Made by a program: the position numbers and the translations under genes | From: a virus | Taxonomy: Duplodnaviria > Caudoviricetes | Reading direction: 5' to 3' (one strand) | IMG/VR virus record: IMGVR_UViG_3300031949_000032 | Coordinates: 1-63,715 of that record | DNA: 63,715 nt | Part shown: positions 31,768 to 59,792 of the stretch, piece after piece | How the letters are laid out: the number at the start of each line of letters is the position of its first letter | Position numbering within the stretch: position 1 is the first letter of the stretch | Notes under the pieces: generated by a model | What the model saw: the letters and a program-made list of their open reading frames with translations, nothing else | What the model was told of the DNA's origin: nothing | Databases searched by the model: none

Positions 31768-31768
31768 A

Positions 31769-32050
31769 ATGAAGAAAATAACAAAAGTAACAGGTGTAAT
31801 TACGCCTACTATGGATGTATTTGTAAGATGGATCAAAAATGAAAAAATAGGAAGTGTACCATACAACGGACAATTTAGAGTAATGCATTTAAATAATGAA
31901 TTATTTGTAGGAATAAGCCAAATATCACATGTATGTAGCTATAGTTTTGATGAAATTATAGAACTACATGGAAGTGCAACTATTAAAAATTATACTGATT
32001 TAATTGAATGTGCAAAATTTAATAAAAAAAAGCGAGGTAAAAATGAGTAA
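31769..32050 (+). CDS. Hypothetical protein
   Basis: ORF in operon. Confidence 0.6.
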   Translation: MKKITKVTGVITPTMDVFVRWIKNEKIGSVPYNGQFRVMHLNNELFVGISQISHVCSYSFDEIIELHGSATIKNYTDLIECAKFNKKKRGKNE

Positions 32051-32258
32051 GGCGAAAATAACTATCGAAGTAAAGGATGATAATTCGGTAAAATTGGAAA
32101 CGAAAGGAGACGTTGATACAATGCTTAATGGACTCGTAACTATTTTAATGGAAGATGAAAAGTTCAATGCTCTTGTTTCAACAGCTTACAGTTGTGTGAT
32201 GCAGATTAAACAGGCACAAACACCACCAGTTAAAAAAATAATAATAGCCCACAAATGA
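32043..32258 (+). CDS. Hypothetical protein
   Basis: Likely start MSKAK. Confidence 0.6.
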   Translation: MSKAKITIEVKDDNSVKLETKGDVDTMLNGLVTILMEDEKFNALVSTAYSCVMQIKQAQTPPVKKIIIAHK

Positions 32259-32521
32259 AAAACTCAACTAAGGTAAAGATCATAAATCTTGTTAAGAAGG
32301 TTTTGAAATTCAAAGAACCTGAAATTTTATACATTGATTATAGCGAACGTTTTACTTTATATAAAAAACTCCATAATCATCCATCATTAACACGGGCTCA
32401 TTTATATAGTAGGCTGCTTGAAAAATTAAAACAATCTGGAGCTATAGAGATTATTGAACAAAAAGACCCATTTTCTTATAATTCATTATTCATTATGAGA
32501 ATTAAAGTTTTAAAACCATGA
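32255..32521 (+). CDS. Hypothetical protein
   Basis: ATGA coupling on both sides. Confidence 0.6.
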   Translation: MKNSTKVKIINLVKKVLKFKEPEILYIDYSERFTLYKKLHNHPSLTRAHLYSRLLEKLKQSGAIEIIEQKDPFSYNSLFIMRIKVLKP

Positions 32522-32721
32522 AAAACTGCCCATTCTGTGGATCATTCAACACAAAAGTAGCTGCCGAAGCATCTTCAGAAAAAGGAAAACACCATGTTGT
32601 TTTTGTGGAATGCCTGGAAGAAAACTGCAAAGCAAGAGGCCCTATTGCATCCGGTACGGGTGAGTTTGTTTCAAACGATGAAACTGCATTAGCTTTTAAT
32701 AAATGGAATAAAAGATTTTAA
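32518..32721 (+). CDS. Lar-family restriction alleviation-like protein
   Basis: CPFCG...C....C...GP...A...WNKR. Confidence 0.75.
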   Translation: MKNCPFCGSFNTKVAAEASSEKGKHHVVFVECLEENCKARGPIASGTGEFVSNDETALAFNKWNKRF

Positions 32722-32723
32722 TT

Positions 32724-32984
32724 ATGGAAACCGAAGTAAAAAATACAATTAAAGAGTACGCAAAACTTGGCCGTGAGATAAAGATAAGTCCAAAAACACT
32801 TGTATCCATAAATAATCCAGGATATAAAAAAGAGTATTTTACCCATACTGTTGAAGTTATAATTGGTATTGGTAAAAATAATACAGCCTCTATATTAATG
32901 GATATAGATACATGGGAAGCGTTAAAAAATGGGGATGAAATTTTGACAACAAAAATTAAAGATTTTAAGGGAAGAGTTAATTAA
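32724..32984 (+). CDS. Hypothetical protein
   Basis: ORF in operon. Confidence 0.6.
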   Translation: METEVKNTIKEYAKLGREIKISPKTLVSINNPGYKKEYFTHTVEVIIGIGKNNTASILMDIDTWEALKNGDEILTTKIKDFKGRVN

Positions 32985-33005
32985 ACAATTAATACAACAA
33001 TAACA

Positions 33006-39217: not shown

Positions 39218-41194
39218 CTAAGCTGCCTGTCTTCCCATAGCCTGTTCCAACATTGCCATTGCTTTTGGGTCACCTTGCTGTGCTGCCTGTGATACTTCGG
39301 GTGGTATTCCAGATTGAGCCTGTTGTTTGGCGGCTTCTTCTTCCTGCCTTTTTAGCGATTCAAGCATAGTGTCTGCAAATGGAACATTCGAATTTTCAAG
39401 GTACATCTTAAGATTGATCCTTTCTGTATTCAAAAGGTTTGTTAATGTTTCTTCCATTGCCATCCTATAAATAGGAGTATCATTACCTGAAGATACTACA
39501 TTATCAAATGCCATATTTTTTACAGCTTCCGGGTCATAAAGTTTAGCTTCTTCTTTAAATGCCCTACCAGATATAGCCAAGTATCTTGGTTCATTGTAGA
39601 ACTGTTTAATAAGCTGAATCATTTTATAATCCCTATCCTTAATGAAGGATGCGAATGATTTCATATACCCTACATTGTTTGTAGATGCATTCTGAGCCTC
39701 CATTGCGTATCTGGATGCCGGTGTTCCGCTTCCGGCAGATTGTCCTTGTATTGCTCCCTGTACACCCGAAATATCGGTAAGGAGTTTAGAATACAATTGA
39801 ATCATTTCTTGCGCTCCAATATTTGTAGAGTTAACCGAAATTTGTTTTGGTAACTGGCCGTGAGCTTTTGGAGTATAAAAAATTACGCCATTAATTTCAG
39901 TCCATGATGCCGCGAATTCATCTGGAGACATTCCCTCCGGAACAATATCCTTTGGCACCATAAGTGTACCCTTGGCCGAAGAATTGATAATCATATCCAT
40001 AAGTATGATATATCTATTCAACTGTCTTTGAATATCAATAATATCGCTAACAAATCCCCAATTTTCACCGTCAATTAATGGGTATAAAAGAAATACATAA
40101 GGATGTTCCTGGTGTTCGTATGGAGTTTCACCTTCTTGTAAAACATATCCATTCGGAGTAAGGAATTTATAATACCAGAATTGTTCGTATACATCCTTTA
40201 ATTCAAGGAGCAATAAATCTTCTTCAGCAACTCCCTGGGATAAACCTTGGGATATTCTGTTTGCATTTATTTTATTTAATTCTGAACGTGAACGATTTGT
40301 TACAGTAATACTACCATCTGCATAATCGATAACTTCAATTCTCCATTCTCCTTTTAATTCCCACGCCTCAATAACCCGGCATTTAGTAAAATCATTAGGT
40401 ATAAGGAAATCTAAGTTATCAACTGATTCTGGTCTAAAACCGTACACTCTTGACAAATAATCAATATCCCTTACATTACCGTACCATTGGCGAATCTTTT
40501 CTTCATCTGCTTTATTTCTGGCAAAGTTTGAAATCAAATCTTTAATTGGCAGGTCGTGTATTTCTCCTATTAATCTTAAATCCCTATGCTGAATATCTGT
40601 AATATCAGAATTCATAAACATGCGCGAGATTGTTTTATTTTCAACAATTAGGTCATAACAATCACGTGTTCTATGGGGCCCAAACATAACCTTTTGAATA
40701 GGCATACCGGAAAGTAAAAATTCTACAAACGATGAAGCATCCCTTTCTTCTGTTTTATTTATTTGCTGGCCATACTGAAGAGCGTTTGTCATCATTTCGG
40801 TTGCCTTTTGCTTATCCCGGTCTCTGGACAATACAATTGTACTTGTTGGATTACCTCTATATTGCCCTTCCAGGTTCTTGACTAATTGGCGTACCTGATT
40901 TTGAACGAAAGGTATTTTACCTTGCTCTCTAATCAAATCTTCTTCTTTAATCATTTTACCCGTTTTTGGGTGCCGGATATACTCATCCCATTGACGGCCT
41001 CTATGGTAATTTCTTGCCCGTTTTCGTTCCTTCCTACTTTCTGCAAGGCTATCATAATATGAACGGCATTTCCATACCAATTCTGTATTCTCCCTGCTGA
41101 AATCTTCATGCAATCTTTTTTCTGGTACCGGTTTACTTTTAATACCCAGAGTTTGCTTATTGATCTTTTTGAAATTAATAGTTCCTTCTATCAT
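39218..41194 (-). CDS. Portal protein (P22-like)
   Basis: YHRGRQW, IPFVQNQVR, IIDIQRQLNR, DISGV...QG. Confidence 0.85.
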   Translation of the reverse strand: MIEGTINFKKINKQTLGIKSKPVPEKRLHEDFSRENTELVWKCRSYYDSLAESRKERKRARNYHRGRQWDEYIRHPKTGKMIKEEDLIREQGKIPFVQNQVRQLVKNLEGQYRGNPTSTIVLSRDRDKQKATEMMTNALQYGQQINKTEERDASSFVEFLLSGMPIQKVMFGPHRTRDCYDLIVENKTISRMFMNSDITDIQHRDLRLIGEIHDLPIKDLISNFARNKADEEKIRQWYGNVRDIDYLSRVYGFRPESVDNLDFLIPNDFTKCRVIEAWELKGEWRIEVIDYADGSITVTNRSRSELNKINANRISQGLSQGVAEEDLLLLELKDVYEQFWYYKFLTPNGYVLQEGETPYEHQEHPYVFLLYPLIDGENWGFVSDIIDIQRQLNRYIILMDMIINSSAKGTLMVPKDIVPEGMSPDEFAASWTEINGVIFYTPKAHGQLPKQISVNSTNIGAQEMIQLYSKLLTDISGVQGAIQGQSAGSGTPASRYAMEAQNASTNNVGYMKSFASFIKDRDYKMIQLIKQFYNEPRYLAISGRAFKEEAKLYDPEAVKNMAFDNVVSSGNDTPIYRMAMEETLTNLLNTERINLKMYLENSNVPFADTMLESLKRQEEEAAKQQAQSGIPPEVSQAAQQGDPKAMAMLEQAMGRQAA

Positions 41195-44100
41195 GGTTTG
41201 CTGTATTTGCTTACAATGTTTCTTTTAGTATTATTGATTATGTGTTCAATATTATCCTTTGCTAATTGTTTCTTTTTTCTTTCTTCGTAAGGCATACTTT
41301 CATCAATTATGATTGTATTTTTAATTTTATAGAGTTTGGATAATATTGATTCGGCAACTTTAACTTTATTGAACTTTGTTAAATCATTTTTTAACATCGC
41401 ATCAAGTACTTCATGGTAATTACCGGCATCCTTCTGGGCTTTATAACTATTATTATGATCTTTATACCAATTTGACAATTTACGGTATTCATCATCAACT
41501 CTACCTTTGTACTTATTTCTGTAAAATGAATTTATTATAGGAACGGTGGTAAAATCAAATCCTTCTGTAATGTCATCTATTTCTGCTTCCTTTTTAGCTT
41601 TTTCTGCTTTTGTTTCTATCATTTTACTCATAGTTGTAATAGCATCCAACACAAACGATGCAGGACCGGCTCCTAAATCTTTAGTTATATATTCTAAATC
41701 GGAAGGGTTAATATCCATAATATCCCACACTTTTTTTCCATCTTTTAAATCCATAATAGAACGTACTTTTGGATCACCACCACCCAATATAAATAAATTA
41801 TCGGTCAACGCTTTATACAATGGATTTACATTTCGTTTATGTAATTGAGAGTCCGGTATGTATTCTTTATCTTCAAATTTAGATGGCTCTCTATGTATAA
41901 GATCATTTTTATAATCTTTATTATCTACCCATACACTTATAATTGGTTCAAGTAATGTTGGAATTTTTGCTATAGAGGCAAGGTTAAAACCCTTATCATC
42001 TTTATTCCAAAAACTTGTAACATCAATAGGACTCATTGCATTCTGAAATTGGTCGATAAGATCGTATGTTGCCGTAGCCGCATCCGTTTTTTCATGCTGC
42101 AGGTCATAAACAATATTCCCAACTGCATAAAAAAACCTATGGCCTTGTGCAAGTGGTATCATTGTAAATTTATTACCAGGTGCAATAATTATATTATTAT
42201 ACCTATTATGCTTATTATGTTCTTTATAGTCCTTTTCTTTATCATCATCATCCCAAAGTAATCCATTTATCATAGACATTACATACCCTAAAGTTGCCAG
42301 ACTTAATTCAGCTATCCCAAATCTTAAAGTATGATGTTTAAACGAATGTCCATATCTCGCTCCACCCTGTACCGCTGCGTTAAAAAAACCTATTAATGAG
42401 CCAATAGCAGATGAAGCATTTCCTTTTCTATCAAAGTTTACTGATATTTCTTTTGCAATATTTATAGCTTGTACAACTGTTTTACCTTGTTCCCTTGCGG
42501 TTACATATGCCGCGAACCTGGTTAAATTTTCTGTGTATTGAGCCAAGGTATCTATATGTTCAAGTATTTTCATTGCTCCCTTATCGGCTCTGATTATTAA
42601 TTTACCAACTGCTAAGTATGGATGGGCTTTTGCATACACCTCTTGGTTTATTTTTTTAATATCTTTATCAAGGTTTCCTTTTATAGTATCAATATCTTCT
42701 AAATTTGTTGTTCCTGTGCGGCCTCCACCTGCAATAAATTCTTCTTGATATTTAAATAAATCAGACTTCGCTTTACCTTTTTTACCTTTAACCATAAAAG
42801 CCATTATATCTGCAACATTTTTAACATATAAAACGGTTGTTTTGGTATCGTTTTCAATCCACGTATTCATTATGGCCCCCTGTAAGTCTCGCGTTAAATT
42901 CTTTATTATCCAAGCAGGGTTTTTTGCTGTACGTAATGCGGATATACCTCTTGTAATCTTACTAACATTAAACCATTTCCATGACATCCATTTTGGAATA
43001 TCTATAAGTTCAGCCTTTTTTATTTCATTGGCCAATTTAGGGTCGCGGGTAACAACAATAAATTTCTCACCGTTCATCATTACCTCTAATTCATGTTGAT
43101 CGGCATTTTGTTTCGGGTTTCTTATCTCATGGTCGATACGAATTTTAGACTTTATTTCACGACCTTCACCGGTCAATTCAAGTGCAGAACCCAATAGTTT
43201 TAAATCCATGTTACCATCTTCGGTATATCCTTTAATTTCATAGATATTATCACCTTCTTTAATTACTTCAGTCCATGTGCCATCATCATTGCTAATGTAT
43301 AATGTTTTTTTCTGGTAGAATAAATCAGTACGATCAGGATTATCCCTTGTTAATCTTAAAGCGTGTTGTTTAACTCTATTTTTTTCACCCCATTTAATAA
43401 CAGACTGAGCCATCTGGTAAAGATTAGAGATTGGATCATCGGCAATAGACCTACGGCCTTTCATTTGCACCGTACCATTAAAGCTACCTTTGCCAGATTC
43501 TTTGTTATAATCCCATTCAATGTCTTCAGAGGTTGGCTCCCATCCGCGCAATGGAACATAATATTTCCATCCGCGATCCTTATTTGTATTATAGGTTTCT
43601 TGGTCAAACTTCCCATAAGTAACCCACATTTTTTGAATGTCATCGGCAGCTTTGCCCCATTTATTCCAAAATGAATCAATAACAGATTCCGGTATATCGC
43701 TTTCAAAATTCATAATGATAGTTTCGGCCTGAATATCCGTCATACCCGCGAACACTTTATCAGCTACTTCCTCTGTCTTTTTTTCTACAAGAAGTTTTAT
43801 TTCGTCCAGTTTTTCCTGAAAACCTTCTGGATCATTTACCTGTTCATCCGGGTTTAGCTTTGACATTAACCCTTGCTTATAAGCTTCAACTTCCTCAGCC
43901 CTTTTAGTTGCATTACGTTCGGGTGCATGTTTGGCTATCATGTAACGGGGAATACTATTCCTATCGAGTTTACTTACTTCATTGTTGTAAGTATCCTCAT
44001 CAATTTCACCTTTCTTGAATTTGGCTTCAAGCTCTACGTAAGCTTTCACATCTCTACTCTTACCTAACCTTACAAATTGTGCAATATGTTCTAGCGCTGG

Positions 44101-47100
44101 CCTAAATGAATCCTTTACATATTTTTCCCATCTGGCTTGTCCTTTACTGTTTTTTTGGTTATCTGCAAGGTACACATCGGATGAGTCTTTAATTTTCAAA
44201 CCAAATAAACTTTGTAGTTTTTTCCATGCAAACATATTATCCTGTCCAATTTCACGCTTAATGTCGCCTATTCCATCAAGCATTTTAGGCGGTTTACGAT
44301 CCAATAATTCAGGGATTAGTTCTCCTAATCTATCAAATGGGTCTGTTGGGTCAACTGGTGGTTCAGGAGGTGTATTTTTAAATAGGATGTTAGGGTTATT
44401 AATATCAAATGTTCCAATATTTCCGGTAGCAGATTTTAACTGTGTAGGGTCAAATACTGCAATATTGGTCATTCCTTGTTCGGTTACATAGAAAGAATCG
44501 TAACCAAGTTCTTTAATCTTGTCAATAACTGGTTGTTTCTCTATACCCCAAGGATCACCGTTACTAATACGTTCCTTAATTTTGTCTCGAACTCCAAGGG
44601 TATTTAGTAAGTCATTAAGTTGGGTTTTATTTCTATAATCGAAAGGGTTTTCTGCTTTTACAAAAACAGGCATTAAAGAACCTGAAGTTCCTTTTTCTGC
44701 ATCTGTTTTCATAAATCCACCTTGTACCCATTTTGGATCGGGGCCGGCAAATATTAATCCTTTACTGTTTGGCTTAAACGTGTCGAAATCATCATTAGTA
44801 GCATGGTACATACGAATAGGTTGACCATTATCATCAACGGCCTTACTTTCACCAAACCACTGCTTAAACTCAGGTGTTAATCCTCTTCCTGTGTCTGAAC
44901 CGGATATGTTTCCCGCATCTTTCTGAGAGCTTCCATCATGTTCATCCCTTCCAGACAATAGTCGTCCATCAGGTCTATTTCCTTTTTGGTAAGATGGAAA
45001 GTGAAATGTATCCCCGTTTTCTCGTCCACTATTCCCACTATTTGTTTCCGATCTTGATTCATTGTTAAATGTTTTATATGCAAATGTATTAATAATTTTA
45101 TCTATTTCTTCCGAAGAGAAAACTTCTTTATCCAAAATAGTAGATAGTTCGGATTCAGAATATATGTCATTTACATTTATTCTGCCGTCTTTAAGGTTTT
45201 TCTCAGCTTTATATGCCATGTATTCATTAGCCTGTAATAAATCACTCCGTGTATCATAAAATGACGGTATAACGCTGAATATTTCACCTTTTACATTATT
45301 GTAAATGTTTGATAAGAATTTAATTTTAATATTTGTAGGTAATTTAGCTACAATAGCATGTACATTTTCGTGTAATAAAATTTGGTCGGCAATTTCTTTA
45401 GAATGGGCATTTACAGAAAGTATATATATTTGTCCTACATCAGGTAAATAACAACCAGAAAAATCCTTATTTTCTTTAAGTGAATCAATATAATCTTGGC
45501 TTGTACCACCCAATGACTTATAATGGTCAATTACTTCATTTATTCCTTTACATACCTTAACGGGTGTGTCTCCTTTATTGATCGAATCTACATAGTCCTG
45601 TACTTCTTTTACACTATTTAGCCATTGTGTAGTATTGGGGTTTATGCCAGATTTAAACATAGGTTGTCCTTCAATTACACTGTCCTTCATAGATGGTGTA
45701 ATTTCAATAGTATGAACTGGGGTATTGTTTGATAATTCAACATCAGACACTTTGCCACCCCATTTTTTAGTATATTTATTTACCCAAGCTGGAAGTATTT
45801 GGTCATAGAAACCTTTCATACCTTCGCCACCAACTTTAAGTCCATCTCCTGTTATGTTTTTGTAGCCTGTTTTTTGCGCATCACCTTCGTTATTAAGTAT
45901 TTTATTAGCAATATCCTTTCCTACTGTATTCTCAATTTCTGACAGTGAAGCACTATCGTTTTCCCATAAAGTATCAGTATTTTCTTTATTATAAACTCCT
46001 ATGTCATAGGTATTATTATCGTTTTGCTTATAAGATATTCTTCCTACATGCTTACTCAAATTATACCTTTCAGCCTGAGTTTCACCGGTAGTCCAAGTAA
46101 CAACATCGAACCCGTTTTCGGCAGCATAACGTAAAGCCCATTTCATTCCAAGTCCTGCCCATTGGTCAGTTTTTTTGAAGGGCATGTCGGGAACACCATT
46201 AACTCCTTTTATAAGCAATTGTTCTTTATTATTTTCTTCTTCATTCATATCGTAACTCCATGAATGCCCATACTTTTCTTTCATCTCTTCACGAAAAGAC
46301 ACTAAAGCTTTACCGTCATTAGTTTTAAAACCTTCCTTTTTACCCTTCTGCGCCCAATCGCTCTGAACTTCTTCTAAATTCAGCGCACGTTTACCGTCCT
46401 TGGTAGTAAATTCATTTATGCGGATATGAACAGCAATGTTTAGTTCATCGAAGTGGGAGGAATTAAATTGTCCTTGAATCGAAAGTTCTGTTGTTGGGTT
46501 AATTGTACTTTTTGCACTTTCAATATCAGATTCACTTGGGAATGCACCGGATAATTGTTTATCATTAATAAAAAATGCCCATAGTCCTTTATTATTCTGC
46601 TTCCAAATTGGCTTTTTAGTTTCTTTTGCAGGTAATGTCAACAATACCTCTTTATAATTTTCTCCTCCGGGTATGGTGTATTGGGAATATTTAGTATTTC
46701 CTTCTTCTTTTTTGCCAACTTGGTAATTATCTGAGTCCGTTTCCATGTTTTGCTTAGCTTCGTATACATCATCGATAGCGTCAAAACCAGATTCTTCTTT
46801 TAAATCTTTCTCCTTTTCTTCTATACTTTCTCTTATAGAATTTTCCTTTTCATAAGGATATTCATTCATAGAAAGTTCGTTCCATAAAAATTCAATCTTA
46901 TTAAATCTTCTTTCGTATTCTTTTAATTGATCATATTTTTGTTGAGCTTCGTCCGTAAATTCGTTTAGTACATAATTTTCATTAACTATACTTTCTTTCA
47001 CGATCTCCTTAACTTCCACCTTATTCTCATCAATCCAATTCTGAATTTCTTCCTTGGTCAATGATTTTTTACCATTGGCGAATGAATCCCAATCCATCCA

Positions 47101-50100
47101 GTCAAGTTCATCTTGTTTTGCTCCGTTTTTAAGAAGCATAGCTTTGAATTGTTCAGGAGTTCCTTTTTCTTGTTGTATTGAGTTTAAAGCACGTTCTGAG
47201 TTGGAATAGTAGGTGTCTGATTTGCGGAAACGAATATCTTCATCTGGCTTACTAAAGTATTTATCACCTATCCTTTTTGCTTCCCTTACTGCATTTTCAG
47301 TATTTTGTCTCTGCCAAGCTTTATTAAAAGGTGACCACTTCCATCCACTATGTTTTAATTCATATATAATTTCAGGTGTTGGTTTTTCATCGAAAAATAA
47401 ACGTAACCGTTCGTCATCTGTGTTGTTTTCTATTTTTAACCCATTATACTCTGGAATATTAAACTGCTTTTCAAGTTCTACTTTTTTATCAAAAGTTGTT
47501 TCAGGAAGTTTCCATATAGAGTTATTGTCGGCAAAAATTGGCTTATCTAAATTAGACTGGACTTCTCTTATGTAATCAAGTGATTTTTGAACATCTTCTT
47601 TTTGTCCGTTTCTAGCCATAGTGTTAATAAATCTTGATAATCCAGACACAAATAATCTTCTATCGTAACCTTTTTCAGTCCCATTATCTATACCTATAAT
47701 TGTTCTTAAATCATTATCAATATTCTTTTTAATACTATTCCATTTTTCTGCATCTTTTTGCTCTTGCGGAGCAGCATTTTTAATAGCTTTAATAGCTATA
47801 CTTTCAGCTTTACCAATCCAGTCAGTAAATTCGACACTTCTTTTGTGTTCTGTATTGTTTGCTTTTTCATTTCTAGCAGTAGGAAAATTAGATGGGCCGG
47901 TTATCATTGGGGATAAAACACGAGACTTTGCACTCAGTAAAGCATTATAATGTTTAATATAACCTTCTTTATACCGTTGAACCTGTTCTGATAGAATCTT
48001 TTTTTGCTCATCGGAAGTTGCTAATTTAGTAAGTGTTTCTATTAATGAATTTACATCCTCAACATAACCTTCTTGTGCTTGCTTAGCCCTTTTCTCAGGA
48101 CTAAAACTTGTACCACGATGGGCATCGTAAGCTAAATTATAACTTATGTCTTCAAGTTTAGGGGTAATATCATCTTTAACAGGATTAAGTATGTCGTTTA
48201 ATTTTTCAATATAGCTATCAGGATTAATGTTTAACCCGGAAATATTATCAATTCCAATTTCTTTTGAATCAGTATTTTCTTTTAATGATGGCGGGATTAA
48301 TCCAGAAATTACATCATCATTAGTTAATGTAGTCTTTGAATAATAATCCTGCATGTATTTAATTTCACGATACCTTTCACCAACATCAGGATCATTCATA
48401 TCACTTTCCTGAAAACTAAATATATCCCAATATTTTTTGGGATTATTTTTTAAATCTTCAATATCTATTTTCCAGTATTCTTTTTGGTCTAAAGGTTCAT
48501 TTGGATCATTTATTTTGTCCTGTATAAACTGTATTTCGTCTAAATTTATTTGTTCTATCGTTTTCCTATCTTCGGGAATACGATCAGAAACCATATTACC
48601 GGTATCGGGAATATGGTCAATAGGTTTAGTGGTAATTAACTCATTTAGCTTTATGGTATCATCAATAGGCTTTTTAGTTTCCGATTTACTGGATAACCAT
48701 TTTTTGAAATTATCGATTGACATTTCGGTAATTGACCCCATTCCATTCCAAGCAGGTTTATAGTTTAATTGGTAAGCTATCTTAGCTTCTTTTGCATTGA
48801 TAAACCCTAACATTACCTTATGTTCGTCAAATTCACCAGTTTTTGGGTTCATTTGGTCAATAATGAATACCTTTTTAGACGAAGGATTATCTCCTATAAA
48901 TGTATCAACCTGGTCTCCATCTTTACCCTCAGTCCTTTTAAAGTATCCGTATGTGTTATTTAAAACAGATTCCCATGCTTTACCATCCTGGTCCACTCCT
49001 TTTCGGGTTGATCCTTTTGGATTTTCAATAGTAATGCCTAAACCTTGTATGGTCACATGTCCCATTTTATAATTACCCGCATCCTTCTGGGCTTCGGTTG
49101 GGTCTGTGTTTACTTTAGCTTCTTCTTCCTGAATCTTGGCCTGTATTTCTTCTGGTTTTTCTTCAGTCTTATTTAGTTCGCTTATTTCGAAGTCCTCAAC
49201 AAACGAAGCCTTGTCCATTCCCTCAATATTTATACCTGGAAAGTTTTTAGCTCCTAAATAAAAAGATTTAAGGTATGGGATAATGGCTTCTCCAAATTCT
49301 GAAATCATACCCTTGGCAAAATCAACAAACTTTCTTGCACCTGACTCGATATGAAAAGCGGCCATTTCTGTACCAATGGCGAATAATTCAGGATCAAAAC
49401 CGGAATTAAGGTTTGTTAATTTTCCCTTTAACCTGGCTTTAAGTTCCTCGTAACGTTCCTTGGATACAAGTTTATTCTCTTGACCAGATTCCTTTTTAGC
49501 TTTCTGTTTACTCTTTTCAACTTCTGCTGCCTGTTTATCGGAAAGTTTTTTTAACGTATCATTGTATTCAGATAACACATTTTCAGGTACTGGCTTTCCT
49601 TCGTCAAGTGCTTTAGCTACTGCCTGTGTATGTAATGACAAGTAAGGTTCTTTATTACCTTCAAGCTGTCCATATATCCTTTGCGCTTCTGGTTGGTTCC
49701 AGAATTCATCTCTTGTCATTTGCCAAGGTTCCTTTTGTGATTTATTAACCTTTGGTTTTTCTTCAGGTACAACTTCTTTTTCCTCGGTAAAAGAACTATT
49801 ATTAATAATTGATTCAGGTTTAACCATGTATGTAAGACCATCATCTCCCTTAATCTTAACTTTACCCCTTTCTTCTCCGATTATGGTACCTTGGTTAATA
49901 GAACCGTCAAGGAATTTAAAAGTAACTTTAGCAGGTGCAGTAGAGTCGCTTAACCCTACATTAATATCTTCTACTGCCTCCTGCGTATTTTGTGGAGCTC
50001 CAACCTTCGGGTATGCTATAATACCATGCAGAGGTTGATCTTCGTTCTCTGAGTTTGGTAGTTCTACTACTTTAACATCGAAGTTTTTAGCATTCTTCTG

Positions 50101-52500
50101 AAGTTTTTCGGCTGTTTTAGTTGCATCCTCTACATTAGGAGAAATGAAATTAAAGGTATGGGAACCGTCCTCATTTTTAACAGAGTTGAAAGTCTCACCT
50201 TTACTTGTAGTCCATTTCCGGGTATTGGTCGGGGCTTGTACTTTTTCTTCCGGTGCAGTTAAATCTTCGGGTGTAGCCTGTTGTTCGCTTGCTACTTGAT
50301 TTGTTGGTAACTGAATACCGGCATATTTATCTGGAGTTATTTCAACACTTCCGTTATTATTATCGGCATATATGGTACCATCGGGCTGTAAGTCTGAAAT
50401 TACATAATCCTCAGATTGCCCGGTTAAAGGATCGTTATATGTTATAGATTGTCCTGGGGTATATTGTGGCGCATTTTCTTGTTCCTGTTCTAAAAGTTCG
50501 TTTTGTGCCTGTTGGGTATTGTGAATATCATCAACAAATATTTCAGCCTCTACCGGATTAGTCCTATCCAATTGCAATGCCGATATAGGTATAACCTTTT
50601 CCAATGAAGGTACATAAACATACGATAGTTTTTCGTCCACATCCTTGGTTACAAATGCTTCAGTAGGGTTACCTTCTTCGTCCTCCATATTTCTAATGGT
50701 AACCGGGTGTATTGCGCCTGTTTCAGCATTAATCATCGGGGCTACATCCGAACGTACTTTAGATTTAAGCGATTCATTGAGTATATCGTACTGAGTTTTC
50801 CTATTGAAATAGTCAAGCATTGCCATTTTCTTCTCAGGAGTATCTGCCAGTAATGTAAGGTCACTATTAGCCTTCATCCTTTCTTCTAAATCATCCGAGG
50901 TATTGGCATCTATGATTATTTGGGCATCTTCTCCAAAAACAGAAAGGTTGTTTACTGCGGCCTTGTATGGTTTGGTTATGTTTGCATAGTTTACAACGTG
51001 TCCGGGAGTTTCGGCAAGTTTGAATAAACCGCCAAATACCATTGTATTTACAAATATCTGCCCTTGTGTATTCCAGTTAAATATATCTGAAAACTTTTGT
51101 TCGTCATCTACAACGGCATTCCATATACCTGAGAATGTTTCCCCGGCCTGTTCTCCGGCAATACCCTGAATACCTAAGTTTTTCCTAGTTGTATTTAATG
51201 CTGTAATAAAACCACCTTTTTTACTTGTATCAAATAGCAATCCCAATCCAACTTTAGAACCAATACTTTTTAAAGATGGTGAAAGTAGATCATCAACTAC
51301 ACCGCCTCCAAATTCGGAATACCGTTCCATAAATGTTGTGAGGTATGGAACAACTAATGAATTTACAGCATTATGTTCTGTCCCTTGTATAAATTCTCCT
51401 TTGCTATTTTCGTTAAGTGCAACGTCTGGGGTAAGTTTATCTGTAACTCCTTGGTAATACGAAGTCATTCCAAAAACCCTTGGAGCTTGATAAGCTGCAT
51501 TTTTAATTAAGTTTTTTGGTAATGATTTTAGATAGGCTTTCATGCCTTGTTTTGCCAATTCAACAGTTCCTTCTTTAGTAGCGGCTCCGACACCTCCTGT
51601 AGCCCATAAATTTATCATAAAAGGAATTGCATTGGCTAACATTTCGCCAGCTCCATAACCAAATCCGCTTGGATTTTCAGATTTAAACTGTTGTTCAAGT
51701 GATGCTGCGGTCAAAGCTATTTGCTCATCTTCATTTAGAGGAAGTCCATTTTTTGCCTTGTAAGATATTTCCAATACGTCCATAGAGTTTGAAAGTCCTT
51801 TAAATCCTATGGTCATAATATCATTCCAGTCTGACTGCTTAACACCTTCCCAGAAGTTTTTAGGGTTAGACTGATAATCTTTAAGGCTATTTATAATGCG
51901 CTTAGCTTCTTCAAGTCTCTTTATTTTACCAGATTTATCGTAATCCTGTAAATTTTCATCAATTTGACCGAACAATCCAGGGAGTAATCCTCCTTCTGTT
52001 TTATCTGGTTGCTGAGTTTGTATACTTTTTATTTGTCGATCAATCTCAGGTATTAAAGAATTTTGAAGTGTTTCAAATTGTTCTTTTCGCCTGTATTCAT
52101 CACCGGCTTCTTGAAATGACTGTTCAATTGGTTTTTCTTTAACTGAAGTATCAACTTTAGGTAAAGCAGTATTGAAAGCGGATGCCCGTTGCTGCATGTT
52201 TTCGGCAGACTGTACAAACTTATTCGATTCTTCCGGAGTAGGTTTTTGGTCAAGATATTCTTGTCTTAATGGGGGTAATTGTTTTTCATTCTCCCAGGTA
52301 GAAGGTTCAATCTTTTTATCAAATGGAGTATTTACCTTTTTACTATTACTTCTTTGTCTTCCAAATAAATCCAAATACTCATTATCATCTTCGGGTAACT
52401 TACCAAACGCATCAATATATTCCTTTTCATCATCCATTAAAGGCTCTGAAACTTGAACATCTTCAGTTATTCCAAATAGCTTTTTTATATCTTCAGGCAT
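41191..52500 (-). CDS. Giant polyvalent virion/ejection protein (3769 aa)
   Basis: Inorganic-pyrophosphatase-like domain (AGNYKMGH...YGY...GKDGDQVD...FDEHK), DUF3560-like segment, EEVQSDW domain, HExxH zincin (LHENVH), ART-like domain (FKQWFG...MYHAT...AVFDPTQLKS), LPD38-like C-terminus. Confidence 0.85.
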   Translation of the reverse strand: MPEDIKKLFGITEDVQVSEPLMDDEKEYIDAFGKLPEDDNEYLDLFGRQRSNSKKVNTPFDKKIEPSTWENEKQLPPLRQEYLDQKPTPEESNKFVQSAENMQQRASAFNTALPKVDTSVKEKPIEQSFQEAGDEYRRKEQFETLQNSLIPEIDRQIKSIQTQQPDKTEGGLLPGLFGQIDENLQDYDKSGKIKRLEEAKRIINSLKDYQSNPKNFWEGVKQSDWNDIMTIGFKGLSNSMDVLEISYKAKNGLPLNEDEQIALTAASLEQQFKSENPSGFGYGAGEMLANAIPFMINLWATGGVGAATKEGTVELAKQGMKAYLKSLPKNLIKNAAYQAPRVFGMTSYYQGVTDKLTPDVALNENSKGEFIQGTEHNAVNSLVVPYLTTFMERYSEFGGGVVDDLLSPSLKSIGSKVGLGLLFDTSKKGGFITALNTTRKNLGIQGIAGEQAGETFSGIWNAVVDDEQKFSDIFNWNTQGQIFVNTMVFGGLFKLAETPGHVVNYANITKPYKAAVNNLSVFGEDAQIIIDANTSDDLEERMKANSDLTLLADTPEKKMAMLDYFNRKTQYDILNESLKSKVRSDVAPMINAETGAIHPVTIRNMEDEEGNPTEAFVTKDVDEKLSYVYVPSLEKVIPISALQLDRTNPVEAEIFVDDIHNTQQAQNELLEQEQENAPQYTPGQSITYNDPLTGQSEDYVISDLQPDGTIYADNNNGSVEITPDKYAGIQLPTNQVASEQQATPEDLTAPEEKVQAPTNTRKWTTSKGETFNSVKNEDGSHTFNFISPNVEDATKTAEKLQKNAKNFDVKVVELPNSENEDQPLHGIIAYPKVGAPQNTQEAVEDINVGLSDSTAPAKVTFKFLDGSINQGTIIGEERGKVKIKGDDGLTYMVKPESIINNSSFTEEKEVVPEEKPKVNKSQKEPWQMTRDEFWNQPEAQRIYGQLEGNKEPYLSLHTQAVAKALDEGKPVPENVLSEYNDTLKKLSDKQAAEVEKSKQKAKKESGQENKLVSKERYEELKARLKGKLTNLNSGFDPELFAIGTEMAAFHIESGARKFVDFAKGMISEFGEAIIPYLKSFYLGAKNFPGINIEGMDKASFVEDFEISELNKTEEKPEEIQAKIQEEEAKVNTDPTEAQKDAGNYKMGHVTIQGLGITIENPKGSTRKGVDQDGKAWESVLNNTYGYFKRTEGKDGDQVDTFIGDNPSSKKVFIIDQMNPKTGEFDEHKVMLGFINAKEAKIAYQLNYKPAWNGMGSITEMSIDNFKKWLSSKSETKKPIDDTIKLNELITTKPIDHIPDTGNMVSDRIPEDRKTIEQINLDEIQFIQDKINDPNEPLDQKEYWKIDIEDLKNNPKKYWDIFSFQESDMNDPDVGERYREIKYMQDYYSKTTLTNDDVISGLIPPSLKENTDSKEIGIDNISGLNINPDSYIEKLNDILNPVKDDITPKLEDISYNLAYDAHRGTSFSPEKRAKQAQEGYVEDVNSLIETLTKLATSDEQKKILSEQVQRYKEGYIKHYNALLSAKSRVLSPMITGPSNFPTARNEKANNTEHKRSVEFTDWIGKAESIAIKAIKNAAPQEQKDAEKWNSIKKNIDNDLRTIIGIDNGTEKGYDRRLFVSGLSRFINTMARNGQKEDVQKSLDYIREVQSNLDKPIFADNNSIWKLPETTFDKKVELEKQFNIPEYNGLKIENNTDDERLRLFFDEKPTPEIIYELKHSGWKWSPFNKAWQRQNTENAVREAKRIGDKYFSKPDEDIRFRKSDTYYSNSERALNSIQQEKGTPEQFKAMLLKNGAKQDELDWMDWDSFANGKKSLTKEEIQNWIDENKVEVKEIVKESIVNENYVLNEFTDEAQQKYDQLKEYERRFNKIEFLWNELSMNEYPYEKENSIRESIEEKEKDLKEESGFDAIDDVYEAKQNMETDSDNYQVGKKEEGNTKYSQYTIPGGENYKEVLLTLPAKETKKPIWKQNNKGLWAFFINDKQLSGAFPSESDIESAKSTINPTTELSIQGQFNSSHFDELNIAVHIRINEFTTKDGKRALNLEEVQSDWAQKGKKEGFKTNDGKALVSFREEMKEKYGHSWSYDMNEEENNKEQLLIKGVNGVPDMPFKKTDQWAGLGMKWALRYAAENGFDVVTWTTGETQAERYNLSKHVGRISYKQNDNNTYDIGVYNKENTDTLWENDSASLSEIENTVGKDIANKILNNEGDAQKTGYKNITGDGLKVGGEGMKGFYDQILPAWVNKYTKKWGGKVSDVELSNNTPVHTIEITPSMKDSVIEGQPMFKSGINPNTTQWLNSVKEVQDYVDSINKGDTPVKVCKGINEVIDHYKSLGGTSQDYIDSLKENKDFSGCYLPDVGQIYILSVNAHSKEIADQILLHENVHAIVAKLPTNIKIKFLSNIYNNVKGEIFSVIPSFYDTRSDLLQANEYMAYKAEKNLKDGRINVNDIYSESELSTILDKEVFSSEEIDKIINTFAYKTFNNESRSETNSGNSGRENGDTFHFPSYQKGNRPDGRLLSGRDEHDGSSQKDAGNISGSDTGRGLTPEFKQWFGESKAVDDNGQPIRMYHATNDDFDTFKPNSKGLIFAGPDPKWVQGGFMKTDAEKGTSGSLMPVFVKAENPFDYRNKTQLNDLLNTLGVRDKIKERISNGDPWGIEKQPVIDKIKELGYDSFYVTEQGMTNIAVFDPTQLKSATGNIGTFDINNPNILFKNTPPEPPVDPTDPFDRLGELIPELLDRKPPKMLDGIGDIKREIGQDNMFAWKKLQSLFGLKIKDSSDVYLADNQKNSKGQARWEKYVKDSFRPALEHIAQFVRLGKSRDVKAYVELEAKFKKGEIDEDTYNNEVSKLDRNSIPRYMIAKHAPERNATKRAEEVEAYKQGLMSKLNPDEQVNDPEGFQEKLDEIKLLVEKKTEEVADKVFAGMTDIQAETIIMNFESDIPESVIDSFWNKWGKAADDIQKMWVTYGKFDQETYNTNKDRGWKYYVPLRGWEPTSEDIEWDYNKESGKGSFNGTVQMKGRRSIADDPISNLYQMAQSVIKWGEKNRVKQHALRLTRDNPDRTDLFYQKKTLYISNDDGTWTEVIKEGDNIYEIKGYTEDGNMDLKLLGSALELTGEGREIKSKIRIDHEIRNPKQNADQHELEVMMNGEKFIVVTRDPKLANEIKKAELIDIPKWMSWKWFNVSKITRGISALRTAKNPAWIIKNLTRDLQGAIMNTWIENDTKTTVLYVKNVADIMAFMVKGKKGKAKSDLFKYQEEFIAGGGRTGTTNLEDIDTIKGNLDKDIKKINQEVYAKAHPYLAVGKLIIRADKGAMKILEHIDTLAQYTENLTRFAAYVTAREQGKTVVQAINIAKEISVNFDRKGNASSAIGSLIGFFNAAVQGGARYGHSFKHHTLRFGIAELSLATLGYVMSMINGLLWDDDDKEKDYKEHNKHNRYNNIIIAPGNKFTMIPLAQGHRFFYAVGNIVYDLQHEKTDAATATYDLIDQFQNAMSPIDVTSFWNKDDKGFNLASIAKIPTLLEPIISVWVDNKDYKNDLIHREPSKFEDKEYIPDSQLHKRNVNPLYKALTDNLFILGGGDPKVRSIMDLKDGKKVWDIMDINPSDLEYITKDLGAGPASFVLDAITTMSKMIETKAEKAKKEAEIDDITEGFDFTTVPIINSFYRNKYKGRVDDEYRKLSNWYKDHNNSYKAQKDAGNYHEVLDAMLKNDLTKFNKVKVAESILSKLYKIKNTIIIDESMPYEERKKKQLAKDNIEHIINNTKRNIVSKYSKP
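44877..45062 (-). CDS. Overprinted 61-aa ORF nested out of frame in the giant gene
   Basis: A-rich TAAAACATTTAACA-ATG initiation region; globular-looking sequence while the main frame is a disordered linker. Confidence 0.5.
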   Translation of the reverse strand: MNQDRKQIVGIVDEKTGIHFTFHLTKKEIDLMDDYCLEGMNMMEALRKMRETYPVQTQEED

Positions 52501-57717: not shown

Positions 57718-57828
57718 ATTTAATATTATTAAGTTTTTTGGCTGTTTTACTTTTTATGTTTGGTATTATACCCGTATTTTTTTAGACTTAAATATTAAAC
57801 TGAAAGTAAAAACAGGATATTTCTTAAT

Positions 57829-57857
57829 AAAAAAAAGCCGGGATTTATTCCGGCTTA
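57829..57857 (-). terminator. Intrinsic terminator
   Basis: AAGCCGG...CCGGCTT with long T-run on the minus strand. Confidence 0.75.
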
Positions 57858-57880
57858 ATTTTGCATTCATATTCTACTTT

Positions 57881-58096
57881 TTAAATAATCTGCTCCGTAA
57901 TTGGCGCATATCCGAAATCTACAAGAACAGGTATTAAAGCGTCCAAATGTTCAGAGTTTAAAAGCCTTCTACCTTTTAAAAAATGTGAAAGCGTTTTATC
58001 AGGTATTTTAGCTTCTTTTTCGATAGCATTCACAGAAAGGCAACGTAACCGTCTTTCTGTAAAATATGCTTTTATGTTGTTTAGTTCAGCGTTCAT
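57881..58096 (-). CDS. XRE-like HTH protein
   Basis: VNAIEKEAKIPDKTLSHFLKGRR. Confidence 0.75.
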   Translation of the reverse strand: MNAELNNIKAYFTERRLRCLSVNAIEKEAKIPDKTLSHFLKGRRLLNSEHLDALIPVLVDFGYAPITEQII

Positions 58097-58263
58097 TTTC
58101 TTTTGTAAGATTTCATTTGTTTTACTTTTTCTTTTGCAGCATTCATAGCTTCTTCTTCTGTTTTGAAACCTTTTTGTTGATTGTAAACGCCGTCAATTAA
58201 ATATACAAATTCAATTGTGTCAGGGTTCGCTTCTGTCTTTTCGATTGTAATGTTATTTTTCAT
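58093..58263 (-). CDS. Small hypothetical protein (56 aa)
   Basis: Read by hand as MKNNITIEKTEANPD...GFKTEEEA...; ATGA overlaps on both sides. Confidence 0.6.
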   Translation of the reverse strand: MKNNITIEKTEANPDTIEFVYLIDGVYNQQKGFKTEEEAMNAAKEKVKQMKSYKRK

Positions 58264-58502
58264 TTTGTTAAGTATTTAGTGCCTTTTAACCTACTTATTA
58301 CTTCACTTTCAATATATTCTTTAACTTCTAATGCAAATTCTTGATCTTGACATTTTTCTCTCGAAATATAAAGAGTGTCAGTAAAATAATCACTTGGATG
58401 GCTTTCCATACCTTTTTCGTATGCCATTTCGCTTACATAGTCAGATATTACACTTTCTAACCAACCTTCATTTTCGTTTTTAAATTGTTCTAAATATTCC
58501 AT
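58260..58502 (-). CDS. Small acidic hypothetical protein
   Basis: First gene after a dedicated promoter. Confidence 0.65.
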   Translation of the reverse strand: MEYLEQFKNENEGWLESVISDYVSEMAYEKGMESHPSDYFTDTLYISREKCQDQEFALEVKEYIESEVISRLKGTKYLTK

Positions 58503-58546
58503 TTTCTTAGTATTAAATAGAGTTTGTTTGTCTCTCTAATCTGTAC

Positions 58547-58578
58547 CAAATGTAGTACCTTTATTTCAATGTACCAAA
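58547..58578 (-). promoter_or_regulatory. Promoter with embedded ATTTGGTACA direct repeats
   Basis: TTTG-N20-TACATTTG. Confidence 0.65.
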
Positions 58579-58650
58579 TATTATACAATAAAAATGCAAA
58601 TAAAAGTGAAAATAATTTTAACATAATGATTAACAGCGTGTAACACAGCA

Positions 58651-58678
58651 TAAAAAAAGAGGTGGTTAGCCTCTTTTT
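58651..58678. terminator. Intrinsic terminator
   Basis: AAAAAGAGG...CCTCTTTTT. Confidence 0.75.
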
Positions 58679-58682
58679 CAAA

Positions 58683-58823
58683 TTATATGATAAGGTATTC
58701 TTCAAGTAACTTCTTTTTCTCCAAAAAGCTTATTAAATTCTGAATAGCTCTCCTCTTAAACCTTAACCTCGCATTCTGGGATGATATAATCCCTTCTAAT
58801 ACTTTCTCTCTTGCCTTTTTCAT
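58683..58823 (-). CDS. Small basic hypothetical protein (46 aa)
   Basis: Read by hand as MKKAREKVLEG... Confidence 0.4.
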   Translation of the reverse strand: MKKAREKVLEGIISSQNARLRFKRRAIQNLISFLEKKKLLEEYLII

Positions 58824-58932
58824 TTTATTTTTTTTGAAATTCCTATATATTACGGGGGTTTAAGTGAAATTGTTTAGAGTTGTTAAACATATATAACTAT
58901 TAATGTTACATTTATTCCTTTTGTATTTTTGA

Positions 58933-59202
58933 TTAGGCACCTTCAATTAATTTGATACGTTCATTGCTTACATTGAAGACTCTATTGTATTCATATAACT
59001 CTCTGAATTTTTTAGTTTTTGTAATCCTGTGTAATTTAACTTGATAAGAAATATTTTCATATATTTTATCTTGTCTTGATAATAATACACCTGACCAACT
59101 AACTGAAATTATGGTTGCTGGTTCAAACTGTTTCTTTTTTGAACGAGGATCTATAACTAAACATTCTGTATTTAGTAGTTTTTTTAAGTCATTTGTTTCC
59201 AT
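58933..59202 (-). CDS. Hypothetical protein
   Basis: ORF in operon. Confidence 0.6.
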   Translation of the reverse strand: METNDLKKLLNTECLVIDPRSKKKQFEPATIISVSWSGVLLSRQDKIYENISYQVKLHRITKTKKFRELYEYNRVFNVSNERIKLIEGA

Positions 59203-59220
59203 TGTGTATATTTTTAATAA

Positions 59221-59472
59221 TTAAACCGACAACTTATCAGTGAATTGCAATGATGTTGGCAAAACTTCTACAATTGTCCCATCTTCAATCTCTACTAATG
59301 CAACTGTATAATTACCAAATCCTGCAGTTGATTCTTCGTAAGCATTTGCCCATTGGTGAAATAATCCTTTATGCGGGAATCCTTCTTCCCATATTCCTGT
59401 ACCTTGGATAACGGTATAACCATCACCCATGTGCTTTCTTTGAATAAATTTTTTAAAGTTTACTGTTCTCAT
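59221..59472 (-). CDS. Hypothetical phage protein
   Basis: GLFHQW...GNYTVALVE..DG motif. Confidence 0.7.
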   Translation of the reverse strand: MRTVNFKKFIQRKHMGDGYTVIQGTGIWEEGFPHKGLFHQWANAYEESTAGFGNYTVALVEIEDGTIVEVLPTSLQFTDKLSV

Positions 59473-59483
59473 AATAAAGGAAT

Positions 59484-59735: not shown

Positions 59736-59792
59736 ATTATTTTGTTTATAGTAATTTAATTCGGCAGTACATACGCTTTACATTAGCCGTCA

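Follow-up and report, generated by a model that had tools for sequence, protein, structure and literature searches.

A probable embedded gene in the linker of a phage polyvalent-protein gene and its possible role as a plug for the neighbouring HExxH domain

Few of the weapons that phages and conjugative elements inject are as large or as common as polyvalent proteins. Metalloprotease inhibitors and prodomains, such as the serralysin-family inhibitor, whose gene adjoins that of the protease, and the propeptides of zincins, fill the active-site cleft until the right time or place. The candidate plug described here resembles them in being a small protein that would occupy such a cleft; however, they are specified by adjacent genes or as in-frame prosegments, whereas the coding sequence of the plug would lie, in another frame, within the gene of the very polyprotein that contains the protease, and sequence and fold searches revealed no relation of the nested peptide to metalloprotease inhibitors. 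In the founding paper on polyvalent proteins (Iyer et al. 2017, PMC5512222), zincin-like MPTase domains are proposed to carry out the autoproteolytic processing of these proteins, either after injection or while still in the head. The article also describes an HEXXXH variant, as found in one of the relatives analysed below (L002); the word "overlapping" is absent from its text, and its passages on MPTase mention no partner that controls the domain. The host gene studied here is of the kind treated there (ART-PolyVal, LPD38, InPase), but its HExxH domain has no match to Pfam MPTase-PolyVal.

In its embedded architecture, with a small gene lying out of frame inside a larger one, the locus is reminiscent of the Rz/Rz1 two-component spanins of phage lambda, and the Rz/Rz1 paper states that embedded genes of this kind go unannotated by gene callers. 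There is no homology between the two: spanins are membrane and lipoprotein lysis factors, whereas the gene described here lies in an 11-kb polyvalent effector gene and would specify a soluble beta-beta-alpha-alpha protein for which a model predicts contact with an enzyme cleft. Virus genes that overlap as a result of overprinting likewise yield two proteins from two frames, one of them disordered and of skewed composition (review: PMC8227390). What differs here is that the large host gene yields the disordered product and the nested gene the folded one; codon typicality points the opposite way.

The host gene and its nested reading frame

The host gene occupies positions 41191..52500 on the minus strand of the window (the whole 63,715-nt stretch of phage DNA analysed) and encodes a protein of 3769 aa, to which 318 giant proteins are related. 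Very large, and combining several unrelated effector domains with an LPD, the product has the makeup of a polyvalent protein: Pfam recognized InPase (residues 1136-1269, E=1.3e-55), ART-PolyVal (PF18760, residues 2556-2698, E=1.6e-17) and LPD38 (residues 3423-3638, E=4.5e-19), and the PHROG match was to DarB-like antirestriction. Neither tRNA nor Rfam matches were found in the window. The ART-PolyVal domain (44407..44835, minus strand) lies 3' of a linker and is context here, not the predicted partner of the nested protein. That partner is the domain upstream of the linker (residues 2290-2480; 45061..45633, minus strand), which contains the HExxH motif HENVH (residues 2377-2381; nt 45372-45358, minus strand) and a downstream Glu of the sort expected for a third metal ligand (residue 2426; nt 45225-45223, minus strand). 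HExxH on a helix, with a downstream Glu, makes up the zincin motif; the H, E, H and Glu are invariant in all three aligned sequences, the spacing in L002 being HExxxH. The motif and the conserved Glu uphold the name "zincin" given to this domain in the first-pass annotation, but no profile recognized it: PF18818 (MPTase-PolyVal) had no match in three records at E up to 10, no zincin family was among the domain's Pfam matches at E up to 10, and no zincin was among its matches to PDB sequences. The domain is zincin-like by its HExxH motif and conserved Glu only.

The linker (residues 2481-2540; 44881..45060, minus strand) reads ESRSETNSGNSGRENGD...SGSDTGRG in the giant frame, and translation bore out its earlier description as an S/G/R/D-rich stretch (N is abundant as well). 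It is dual-coding. As had also been claimed, a shifted frame of the same strand yields a small peptide: in the +1 frame, a 61-codon ORF (44877..45062, minus strand) extends from an ATG at 45062 to a TAA at 44879-44877, and its translation agrees with the peptide quoted in the first-pass annotation. A version initiated at a TTG (45083) would comprise 68 codons, and the stretch measures 74 codons from stop to stop. The TAA overlaps the giant-frame codons G-L-T of '...GRGLTPEFKQWFG', so that the ORF ends at the start of the conserved ART-PolyVal region, in agreement with the first reading of the sequence; the Pfam match itself starts at residue 2556. Same strand, other frame, complete inclusion in a larger gene and conservation in relatives (see below) are the architectural marks of an embedded gene of the Rz/Rz1 type, and this ORF shows them.

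Openness of the +1 frame is not, by itself, beyond chance. When the giant-frame residues of the stretch were recoded at random with synonymous codons, 35% of trials contained an ATG ORF of 61 codons or more (P=0.35). Among the 252 stretches found in the +1 frame of the giant gene, that of 74 codons is surpassed in length by one other (82, 74, 70, 65...). The 35% figure reflects the scarcity of hydrophobic codons in the linker, and hence of +1 stops: F, L, I, M and V make up 9 of the 74 residues in the stretch against 24% across the gene. What does exceed chance is what the frame encodes, how it is conserved, the context of its start and the fold predicted for its product. Conversely, random synonymous recoding of the nested peptide left the giant frame open across the nested ORF in 0.2%, 0.0% and 0.0% of cases, a rarity which indicates that both frames are maintained.

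The nested gene is preceded by a 25-nt leader (45063..45087, minus strand) that overlaps the giant-frame codons of a conserved ...INTF motif. This leader is A/T-rich, which accords with the A-rich initiation region noticed at the outset, and has no Shine-Dalgarno sequence; it matches in this respect the phage's other genes, SD-like motifs being present in 3 of 47 chosen ones. With a start-context PWM built from 47 gene starts of the phage, the nested ATG scored 4.69, ranking first among the 290 same-strand ATGs of the giant gene, falling in the 99.6th percentile among 2310 other ATGs and outscoring 89% of the true starts in a leave-one-out comparison. The homologous ATGs ranked 24th of 290 in L002 and first of 92 in L005. 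A sigma-70 promoter scan around the nested ORF returned 4 sites for 4.0 expected. In the giant frame, the T of the nested ATG occupies the third position of an Asn codon, making it possible to disable the nested gene while leaving the giant protein unchanged.

Relatives of the probable nested gene and conservation by frame

The same site could be compared at the DNA level in two distant homologues with the linker, L002 and L005, whose giant-frame flanks are 43-46% and 23-24% identical, respectively, to those of the window protein. In both, a +1 ORF with an ATG start follows the conserved IDK(I/L)INTF motif and precedes the next domain (8556-8726, 56 aa, in L002; 1916-2065, 49 aa, in L005). Given the giant peptide, the chance of such an ORF is 0.35 in the window, 0.019 in L002 and 0.41 in L005. 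A search of 1.84 billion representative proteins identified an additional member, P0122, a 62-aa protein from a separate 1705-nt contig, which is 63% identical to the nested peptide (E=2.4e-17) and starts at the same Met. P0122 was also the sole match of a profile search in a set of 5.8 billion proteins. Known instances of the nested gene are three at the DNA level plus this one protein.

Likeness between peptides was assessed pairwise with composition-preserving shuffles (n=5000). The +1 peptides resembled each other in the pairs window-L002 (z 5.4, 4/5000), L002-L005 (z 6.5, 0/5000), L002-P0122 (z 7.0, 0/5000) and L005-P0122 (z 2.6, 113/5000). Compared directly, those of the window and L005 showed no significant likeness (z 0.0, 2312/5000; 1538/3000 with the recoding null), and the family is joined only via L002 and P0122. 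The giant-frame linker peptides, submitted to the same shuffle test, had no likeness beyond composition (z 1.5, 1.6 and -0.3, from 468, 377 and 3140 of 5000). A synonymous-recoding null again set the +1 peptides apart (2/3000 for window-L002, 0/3000 for L002-L005), as did permutation of codons within the linker (16/3000 and 0/3000), while the +2-frame control was flat (1055/3000 and 789/3000). Among 81 aligned segments of two giant genes, the one covering the linker had the highest +1 z (5.6, on a background with mean 0.58 and sd 1.5). Conservation of the alternative frame in homologues, on which the first-pass annotation had staked its proposal, was thus found in the form of same-site counterparts in L002 and L005, of the related protein P0122 and of frame-specific likeness.

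When the +1 peptides guide the alignment, no nucleotide position is better conserved than the giant-frame wobble (0.52, 0.53); per-position identity between the window and L002 is 0.36, 0.52 and 0.41, which is not the classic pattern of purifying selection. With a null that fixes the nested peptides, the giant-frame likeness was also above expectation (31/3000 for window-L002, 7/3000 for window-L005). The synonymous codons chosen in the nested frame are less typical of the phage than those chosen in the giant frame (-0.22 vs 0.12; -0.15 vs 0.02). Codon typicality favours the giant frame as the older of the two, whereas the distribution of fold and disorder favours the nested frame. The word "overprinted" in the first-pass annotation implies a direction of origin, on which these two lines of evidence disagree.

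In the tBLASTn check suggested in the first-pass annotation, the nested peptide searched against L002 left the homologous site unreported at E up to 100, a point against the reading as a gene. No further relatives were obtained from IMG/VR queried with the window region, the nested peptide, P0122, the L005 region or the four-peptide profile, nor from JGI metagenomes and GTDB genomes, nor by blastn from phage GenBank records. Querying IMG/VR with P0004, a protein from an 11-kb contig, recovered the L002 contig alone, and a search for neighbours of P0122 on the 1705-nt contig gave 7 matches of unrelated length, none from that contig. The stretch is present in one DNA sequencing run (a soil metagenome, probably the record's own source), and no RNA run is listed. 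A search of the contigs of that DNA run at 80% likeness recovered the contig of origin and three short pieces that proved spurious, and no variants of the stretch.

Predicted fold and predicted complex

AF2 modelled the window peptide, from a three-row alignment, as strand-strand-helix-helix (pLDDT 84, pTM 0.65), the predicted elements spanning residues 6-12, 19-25, 26-37 and 42-52. The L005 peptide, with that of L002 as its only second row, was predicted to have the same order of elements (pLDDT 85.8), and in both monomers the hairpin is intramolecular. Three of the four family members are acidic (net -5, pI 4.5-5.0). The nested peptide had no match in Pfam, PHROG or PDB sequences; Foldseek found none for the predicted fold in PDB and BFVD at E<=0.001, and the ESM Atlas gave no usable match (recognition 1922 and 2044). 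No in-frame counterpart of the module was detected in 132 proteins, the best score being 8.8 bits (P0109). Matches to tandem acyl carrier proteins (E=1.7e-9 to 1e-6) came from 4-6 repeats per protein; a four-member profile lowered them to E=0.08 and 1.2 in the set of 132 proteins, and this candidate identity was rejected as repeat-inflated.

The nested peptide, the HExxH domain and the ART domain were co-folded as three chains. The score was 0.83 (0.83, 0.87 and 0.82 in individual runs) against 0.01 for the best of three controls. Of 80 solved complexes, 58 attained that mark, as did 2 of 110 mismatched pairs; the use of three chains and of our own alignments of 2-4 rows departs from the tool's calibration. 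Agreement of contacts among runs was at least 62%; pLDDT was at least 82 for the partner and 83-86 for the other chains. In the model, the strand F2347-L2352 pairs with residues I18-F22 of the nested peptide, and the interface includes H2377, E2378, H2381 and E2426, with H2381 adjoining H19 of the peptide, a residue replaced by R in both distant relatives. All of the confident contacts listed are on the HExxH chain and none on the ART chain. When the HExxH chain was replaced, the peptide and ART being kept, the score fell to 0.00; this is a control result and does not speak against binding to ART. Co-folding with both domains had been among the checks proposed in advance: it supported binding in the cleft of the HExxH domain and gave no confident contact with ART. 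The model, which supports an association of the nested peptide with the HExxH domain, is silent on whether the consequence would be inhibition or activation.

Possible role of the nested protein

The computational findings on the ORF, its conservation, start context, fold and model-supported binding make it quite likely that the nested ORF is a real, translated gene. We infer that translation would begin at its own ATG (45062), by way of an SD-less, A/T-rich start such as those of the phage's other genes, and that the product would be a protein of 50-60 aa with a beta-hairpin and two helices. The co-fold suggests that this protein probably binds the HExxH domain, and would do so in trans, its second strand running along the edge strand of the cleft in the manner of a substrate and a basic residue (H19, or R in the two distant relatives) lying beside a metal-binding His. 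Inhibition would be the most likely consequence of such binding; that the protein is an inhibitor of the HExxH domain has somewhat less than an even chance. The best overall reading, to which we give about even weight, is that of a real embedded gene whose product acts in trans to plug, and so inhibit, the adjacent protease-like domain. The first-pass annotation had proposed a nested immunity or inhibitor gene tied to either ART or the zincin; conservation of the alternative frame, the gene-like start and the confident fold support the nested gene, and the modelled placement in the HExxH cleft, with no confident contact on the ART chain, favours the zincin.

Several other explanations must be set against this one. 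The ORF might be a product of chance, arising because a hydrophilic linker is nearly devoid of codons whose second base is T and consequently has few +1 stops, the peptide being unmade or functionless. The estimates of 0.35 and 0.41 given above, the other long +1 stretches of the giant gene (82, 70 and 65 codons), the lack of a family or fold match, the dissimilarity of the window and L005 peptides and the atypical codon usage of the nested frame would all be in keeping with it. We nevertheless consider chance unlikely, since the +1 peptides are alike beyond composition where the giant-frame peptides are not and the +2 control is flat, P0122 exists, the start context ranks first at two of three loci, two independent confident folds share one topology, and the co-fold departs so widely from its best control. 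If the gene is real, its product could still bind the HExxH domain as an activating cofactor or a folding chaperone that donates a strand to the active site. Some viral protease cofactors do work by strand addition at the active site, and the evidence for binding would serve this explanation equally well; however, the modelled peptide covers the metal-binding His and the conserved Glu, an arrangement that looks like occlusion rather than completion, and we infer that inhibition is to be preferred and activation improbable.

A programmed +1 frameshift would produce a truncated polyvalent protein ending in the beta-beta-alpha-alpha module, folded back onto its own HExxH domain. At all three loci, 9-13 codons 5' of the ATG are free of stops in the +1 frame, and the predicted docking site of the module is the very domain that would precede it in such a fusion; yet conservation of an ATG with a top-ranking start context, together with the start of P0122 at the same Met, makes a frameshift very unlikely. 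The order of strand, helix, Gly-containing loop and helix in the nested peptide presumably recalls ribbon-helix-helix proteins, and a G-x-(S/T/N) loop occurs in three of the four members, so that a small DNA-binding regulator unconnected with the flanking domains could be imagined. Such a regulator is scarcely plausible in view of the failure of RHH_1 (PF01402) to match in three records at E up to 10 (control genomes, 14/14), the absence of any RHH family from a Pfam scan at the same limit of three of the four members (all except the L005 peptide), the lack of a fold-search match at E<=0.001, the acidity of three members and the intramolecular hairpin of the AF2 models, the two-stranded ribbon of RHH dimers being intermolecular.

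If the nested protein is indeed a detachable plug, it might hold the protease-like domain inactive during synthesis of the giant protein and be lost at packaging or injection; one possible target of the freed domain would then be the flexible linker, whose cleavage would release ART together with the C-terminal modules. It is conceivable, though on the doubtful side, that the linker DNA amounts to a timing device. Its giant frame would specify a tether to be cut by the HExxH protease and its +1 frame a free plug that blocks this protease; being a separate small protein, the plug would stay behind when the phage is packaged or become diluted when it injects, and the giant protein would dismantle itself, freeing ART and the other modules, no earlier than in the capsid or the next host. 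Similar out-of-frame safety catches may hide, in places that gene callers ignore, in the linkers of other polyvalent or polymorphic effectors. Should the plug reading prove true, it would provide a concrete control mechanism for the protease domains of polyvalent proteins, encoded in the other frame of the same gene, and would constitute the second well-supported embedded phage gene, after Rz/Rz1, whose product binds that of its host gene. It would also mean that the "disordered linkers" of giant proteins can conceal folded proteins missed by standard gene calling.

The embedded frame and its host gene

The window looks like a complete virus record with direct terminal repeats; its G+C content is 33%, and no tRNA or Rfam matches were found in it. 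A single minus-strand ORF of 3769 codons (52500 to 41191) encodes a giant protein with Pfam matches to InPase (residues 1136-1269), ART-PolyVal (2556-2698) and LPD38 (3423-3638) and a PHROGs match to a DarB-like antirestriction family. By these matches, it belongs to the phage polyvalent proteins as defined by Iyer et al. 2017 (PMC5512222). Elsewhere in the window, two stretches of about 2 kb (30691-33005 and 57718-59792) lack ORFs of at least 100 codons.

The nested ORF, 61 codons in the +1 frame of the giant gene, runs on the minus strand from an ATG at 45062 to a TAA at 44879-44877. Read in the giant frame, this DNA encodes an S/G/R/N/D-rich linker (residues 2481-2540) flanked by a domain carrying HENVH (2377-2381) and by the ART region, which starts LTPEFKQWFG. 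The first-pass annotation had described a shifted-frame ORF nested in an S/G/R/D-rich linker before the ART domain; the ORF coordinates and the translation of both frames bear out every element of this description. By itself, the openness of the nested frame is not unusual. A +1 stop requires a giant-frame codon with T in its middle position, which encodes a hydrophobic residue, and such residues make up 9 of 74 in the linker versus 24% over the whole gene. When the same giant-frame residues are randomly recoded with synonymous codons, 35% of trials yield an ATG ORF of 61 codons or more. Other long +1 stretches are open on the minus strand inside the giant gene (43464-43709, 82 codons; 52056-52265, 70 codons; 46443-46637, 65 codons), none of which equals the linker's z-score in an 81-window conservation scan (see below).

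Relatives and conservation of the +1 frame

The evidence presented here is computational, its base being three DNA instances and one protein. The latter, P0122 (62 aa, from one 1705-nt contig), was found by reading 1.84 billion representative proteins in full; it is 63% identical to the nested peptide (E=2.4e-17) and starts at the same Met. With the peptide alone as query, matches around an 'IV.EKTG' motif were also obtained in the tandem ACP repeats of three polyketide/PUFA-type synthases (P0123-P0125). These were judged incidental; their scores arise from 4-6 repeated stretches and are gone with the family profile. In the polyvalent protein P0109, an in-frame segment (residues 3712-3736, VTFTDGELRQHFNLTDPQIALYREF) looks like the nested family's hairpin plus first helix. 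Its score of 8.8 bits is not significant, and the segment may hint at an in-frame occurrence of the module elsewhere.

Among giant homologues that span the region in full, P0004 (45%) and P0005 (43%) are the closest. Both flanking domains are present in P0009 and P0012 (37-39%), where sequence comparison finds between them an unrelated stretch that does not resemble the S/G/R linker. Linker and nested ORF may be confined to one sub-clade (the window, P0004, P0005 with its locus L002, a second locus, L005, and the P0122 contig). Comparison at the DNA level took in the window, L002 and L005, the last a much more distant relative than L002, its giant frame being only 23-24% identical to the window's. 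At the site of the nested ORF, +1-frame ATG ORFs of 56 aa (L002:8556-8726) and 49 aa (L005:1916-2065) directly follow a conserved IDK(I/L)INTF motif and stop shortly before the next domain. The probability of such an ORF, given the giant-frame peptide, is 0.019 for L002 and 0.41 for L005.

Likeness was tested frame by frame with composition-preserving shuffles (n=5000). Between the window and L002, the +1 peptides gave z 5.4 (4/5000) and the giant-frame linker peptides z 1.5 (468/5000); between L002 and L005, the values were 6.5 (0/5000) and -0.3 (3140/5000). The window and L005 nested peptides lack direct likeness, as indicated by a z of 0.0 (2312/5000; giant frame 1.6, 377/5000). P0122, compared as protein only, resembled the +1 peptides of L002 (z 7.0, 0/5000) and L005 (z 2.6, 113/5000). 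Synonymous redrawing with the giant protein fixed agreed with the shuffles (window-L002 2/3000, L002-L005 0/3000, window-L005 1538/3000), and a stricter null, in which codons were permuted inside the linker, gave 16/3000, 0/3000 and 2022/3000 for the same pairs. The +2 frame, taken as a control, showed no signal (1055/3000 and 789/3000). Among 81 aligned windows of two giant genes (background mean 0.58, sd 1.5), the linker had the top +1 z, 5.6, the non-overlapping runner-up reaching 3.9. The same-site ORFs in L002 and L005 and their frame-specific likeness support conservation of the alternative frame in homologues.

Two results run counter to this picture. With the nested peptides fixed, giant-frame similarity exceeds expectation (window-L002 31/3000, window-L005 7/3000), an excess that the shuffles ascribe to shared composition, and the nested frame uses synonymous codons in a less phage-like way than the giant frame does. 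When the nested peptides guide the alignment, conservation peaks at the giant-frame wobble base (0.52 and 0.53), which would be hard to account for if only the giant frame were under selection; the profile for window-L002 (0.36/0.52/0.41), however, departs from the textbook one. Finally, no more than 0.2% of nested-peptide recodings leave the giant frame open over the nested ORF; selection therefore keeps both frames open.

Start signal

Starts were examined in 47 of 70 ORFs, picked by eye (ATG-started, non-nested, at least 100 codons). Leaders are A/T-rich, just 3 of the 47 genes have an SD-like motif, and A occupies -3 in 72%; this initiation style suggests a Bacteroidota-like host. The PWM score of the nested ATG, 4.69, exceeds those of 99.6% of 2310 other ATG triplets and 89% of true starts (leave-one-out), and ranks first among 290 same-strand ATGs within the giant gene, as it does with an upstream-only PWM. 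The window-trained PWM ranked the nested ATG 1/92 in L005 and 24/290 in L002. The A/T-rich coding of the conserved INTF motif accounts for some of this signal and is inseparable from it here. Within the N-T-F codons, 18 nt upstream of the nested ATG, lies TACATTTG (45081-45088, minus strand), also found in L002 (about 8521-8528) and replaced in L005 by TACATTCA. The Bacteroidota -7 promoter box is TAnnTTTG, which we take TACATTTG to match, and the nested gene may conceivably have an internal promoter at this position.

Predicted fold and partner

AF2 modeled the window peptide (3-row alignment; mean pLDDT 84, pTM 0.65) with strands at 6-12 and 19-25 and helices at 26-37 and 42-52. The L005 peptide gave the same element order (pLDDT 85.8) in a run that used only L002 as second row and is therefore independent of the window sequence. 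No structure match was obtained at E<=0.001 among solved or viral predicted structures, nor was any profile or atlas match found. A ribbon-helix-helix identity was not supported (RHH_1 without match, 3/4 members acidic).

The peptide (4-row alignment) was co-folded with the HExxH domain (2290-2480, 3 rows) and the ART region (2541-2700, 2 rows). The score was 0.83 (runs 0.83, 0.87, 0.82) versus 0.01 for the best of three controls; the mark is reached by 58/80 solved complexes and 2/110 mismatched pairs, a calibration that is approximate for three chains with their own alignments. Contact agreement between runs was at least 62% and partner pLDDT at least 82. All confident contacts listed are on the HExxH chain. 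The model supports, without proving, binding to this domain; the inhibitor interpretation of the first-pass annotation is supported in part, in favor of the zincin-like target over the ART. Nested I18-F22 would pair with F2347-L2352, the modeled interface taking in H2377, E2378, H2381, segment 2412-2418 and E2426. Nested H19 adjoins H2381; across four members, position 19 is H, H, R and R. The modeled geometry is that of a metalloprotease cleft plugged in a substrate-like manner. The domain carries the HExxH motif and a Glu that is invariant in 3/3 sequences; the P0005 domain has HENGIH, i.e. the HExxxH spacing described, in the text of Iyer et al., for some polyvalent MPTases (PMC5512222). 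The domain's identity is the weak point of this reading: neither a Pfam model, PF18818 included, nor a solved chain recognizes it.

In the literature searched, supplements aside, neither a polyvalent-protein partner encoded out of frame nor a nested phage protease inhibitor was found, and 'overlapping' is absent from the text of Iyer et al. (PMC5512222). The nearest known architecture is that of Rz/Rz1, where the Rz1 gene sits within Rz in its +1 frame; the Rz and Rz1 products interact (PMC6139136), whereas the interaction here is modeled only. The best-supported reading is that of an embedded gene whose product would bind, and probably block, the protease-like domain encoded immediately upstream. 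MPTase-type domains have been proposed to carry out autoproteolytic processing of polyvalent proteins, either in the head or once these have been injected (PMC5512222); a free plug could act as a switch for such processing.
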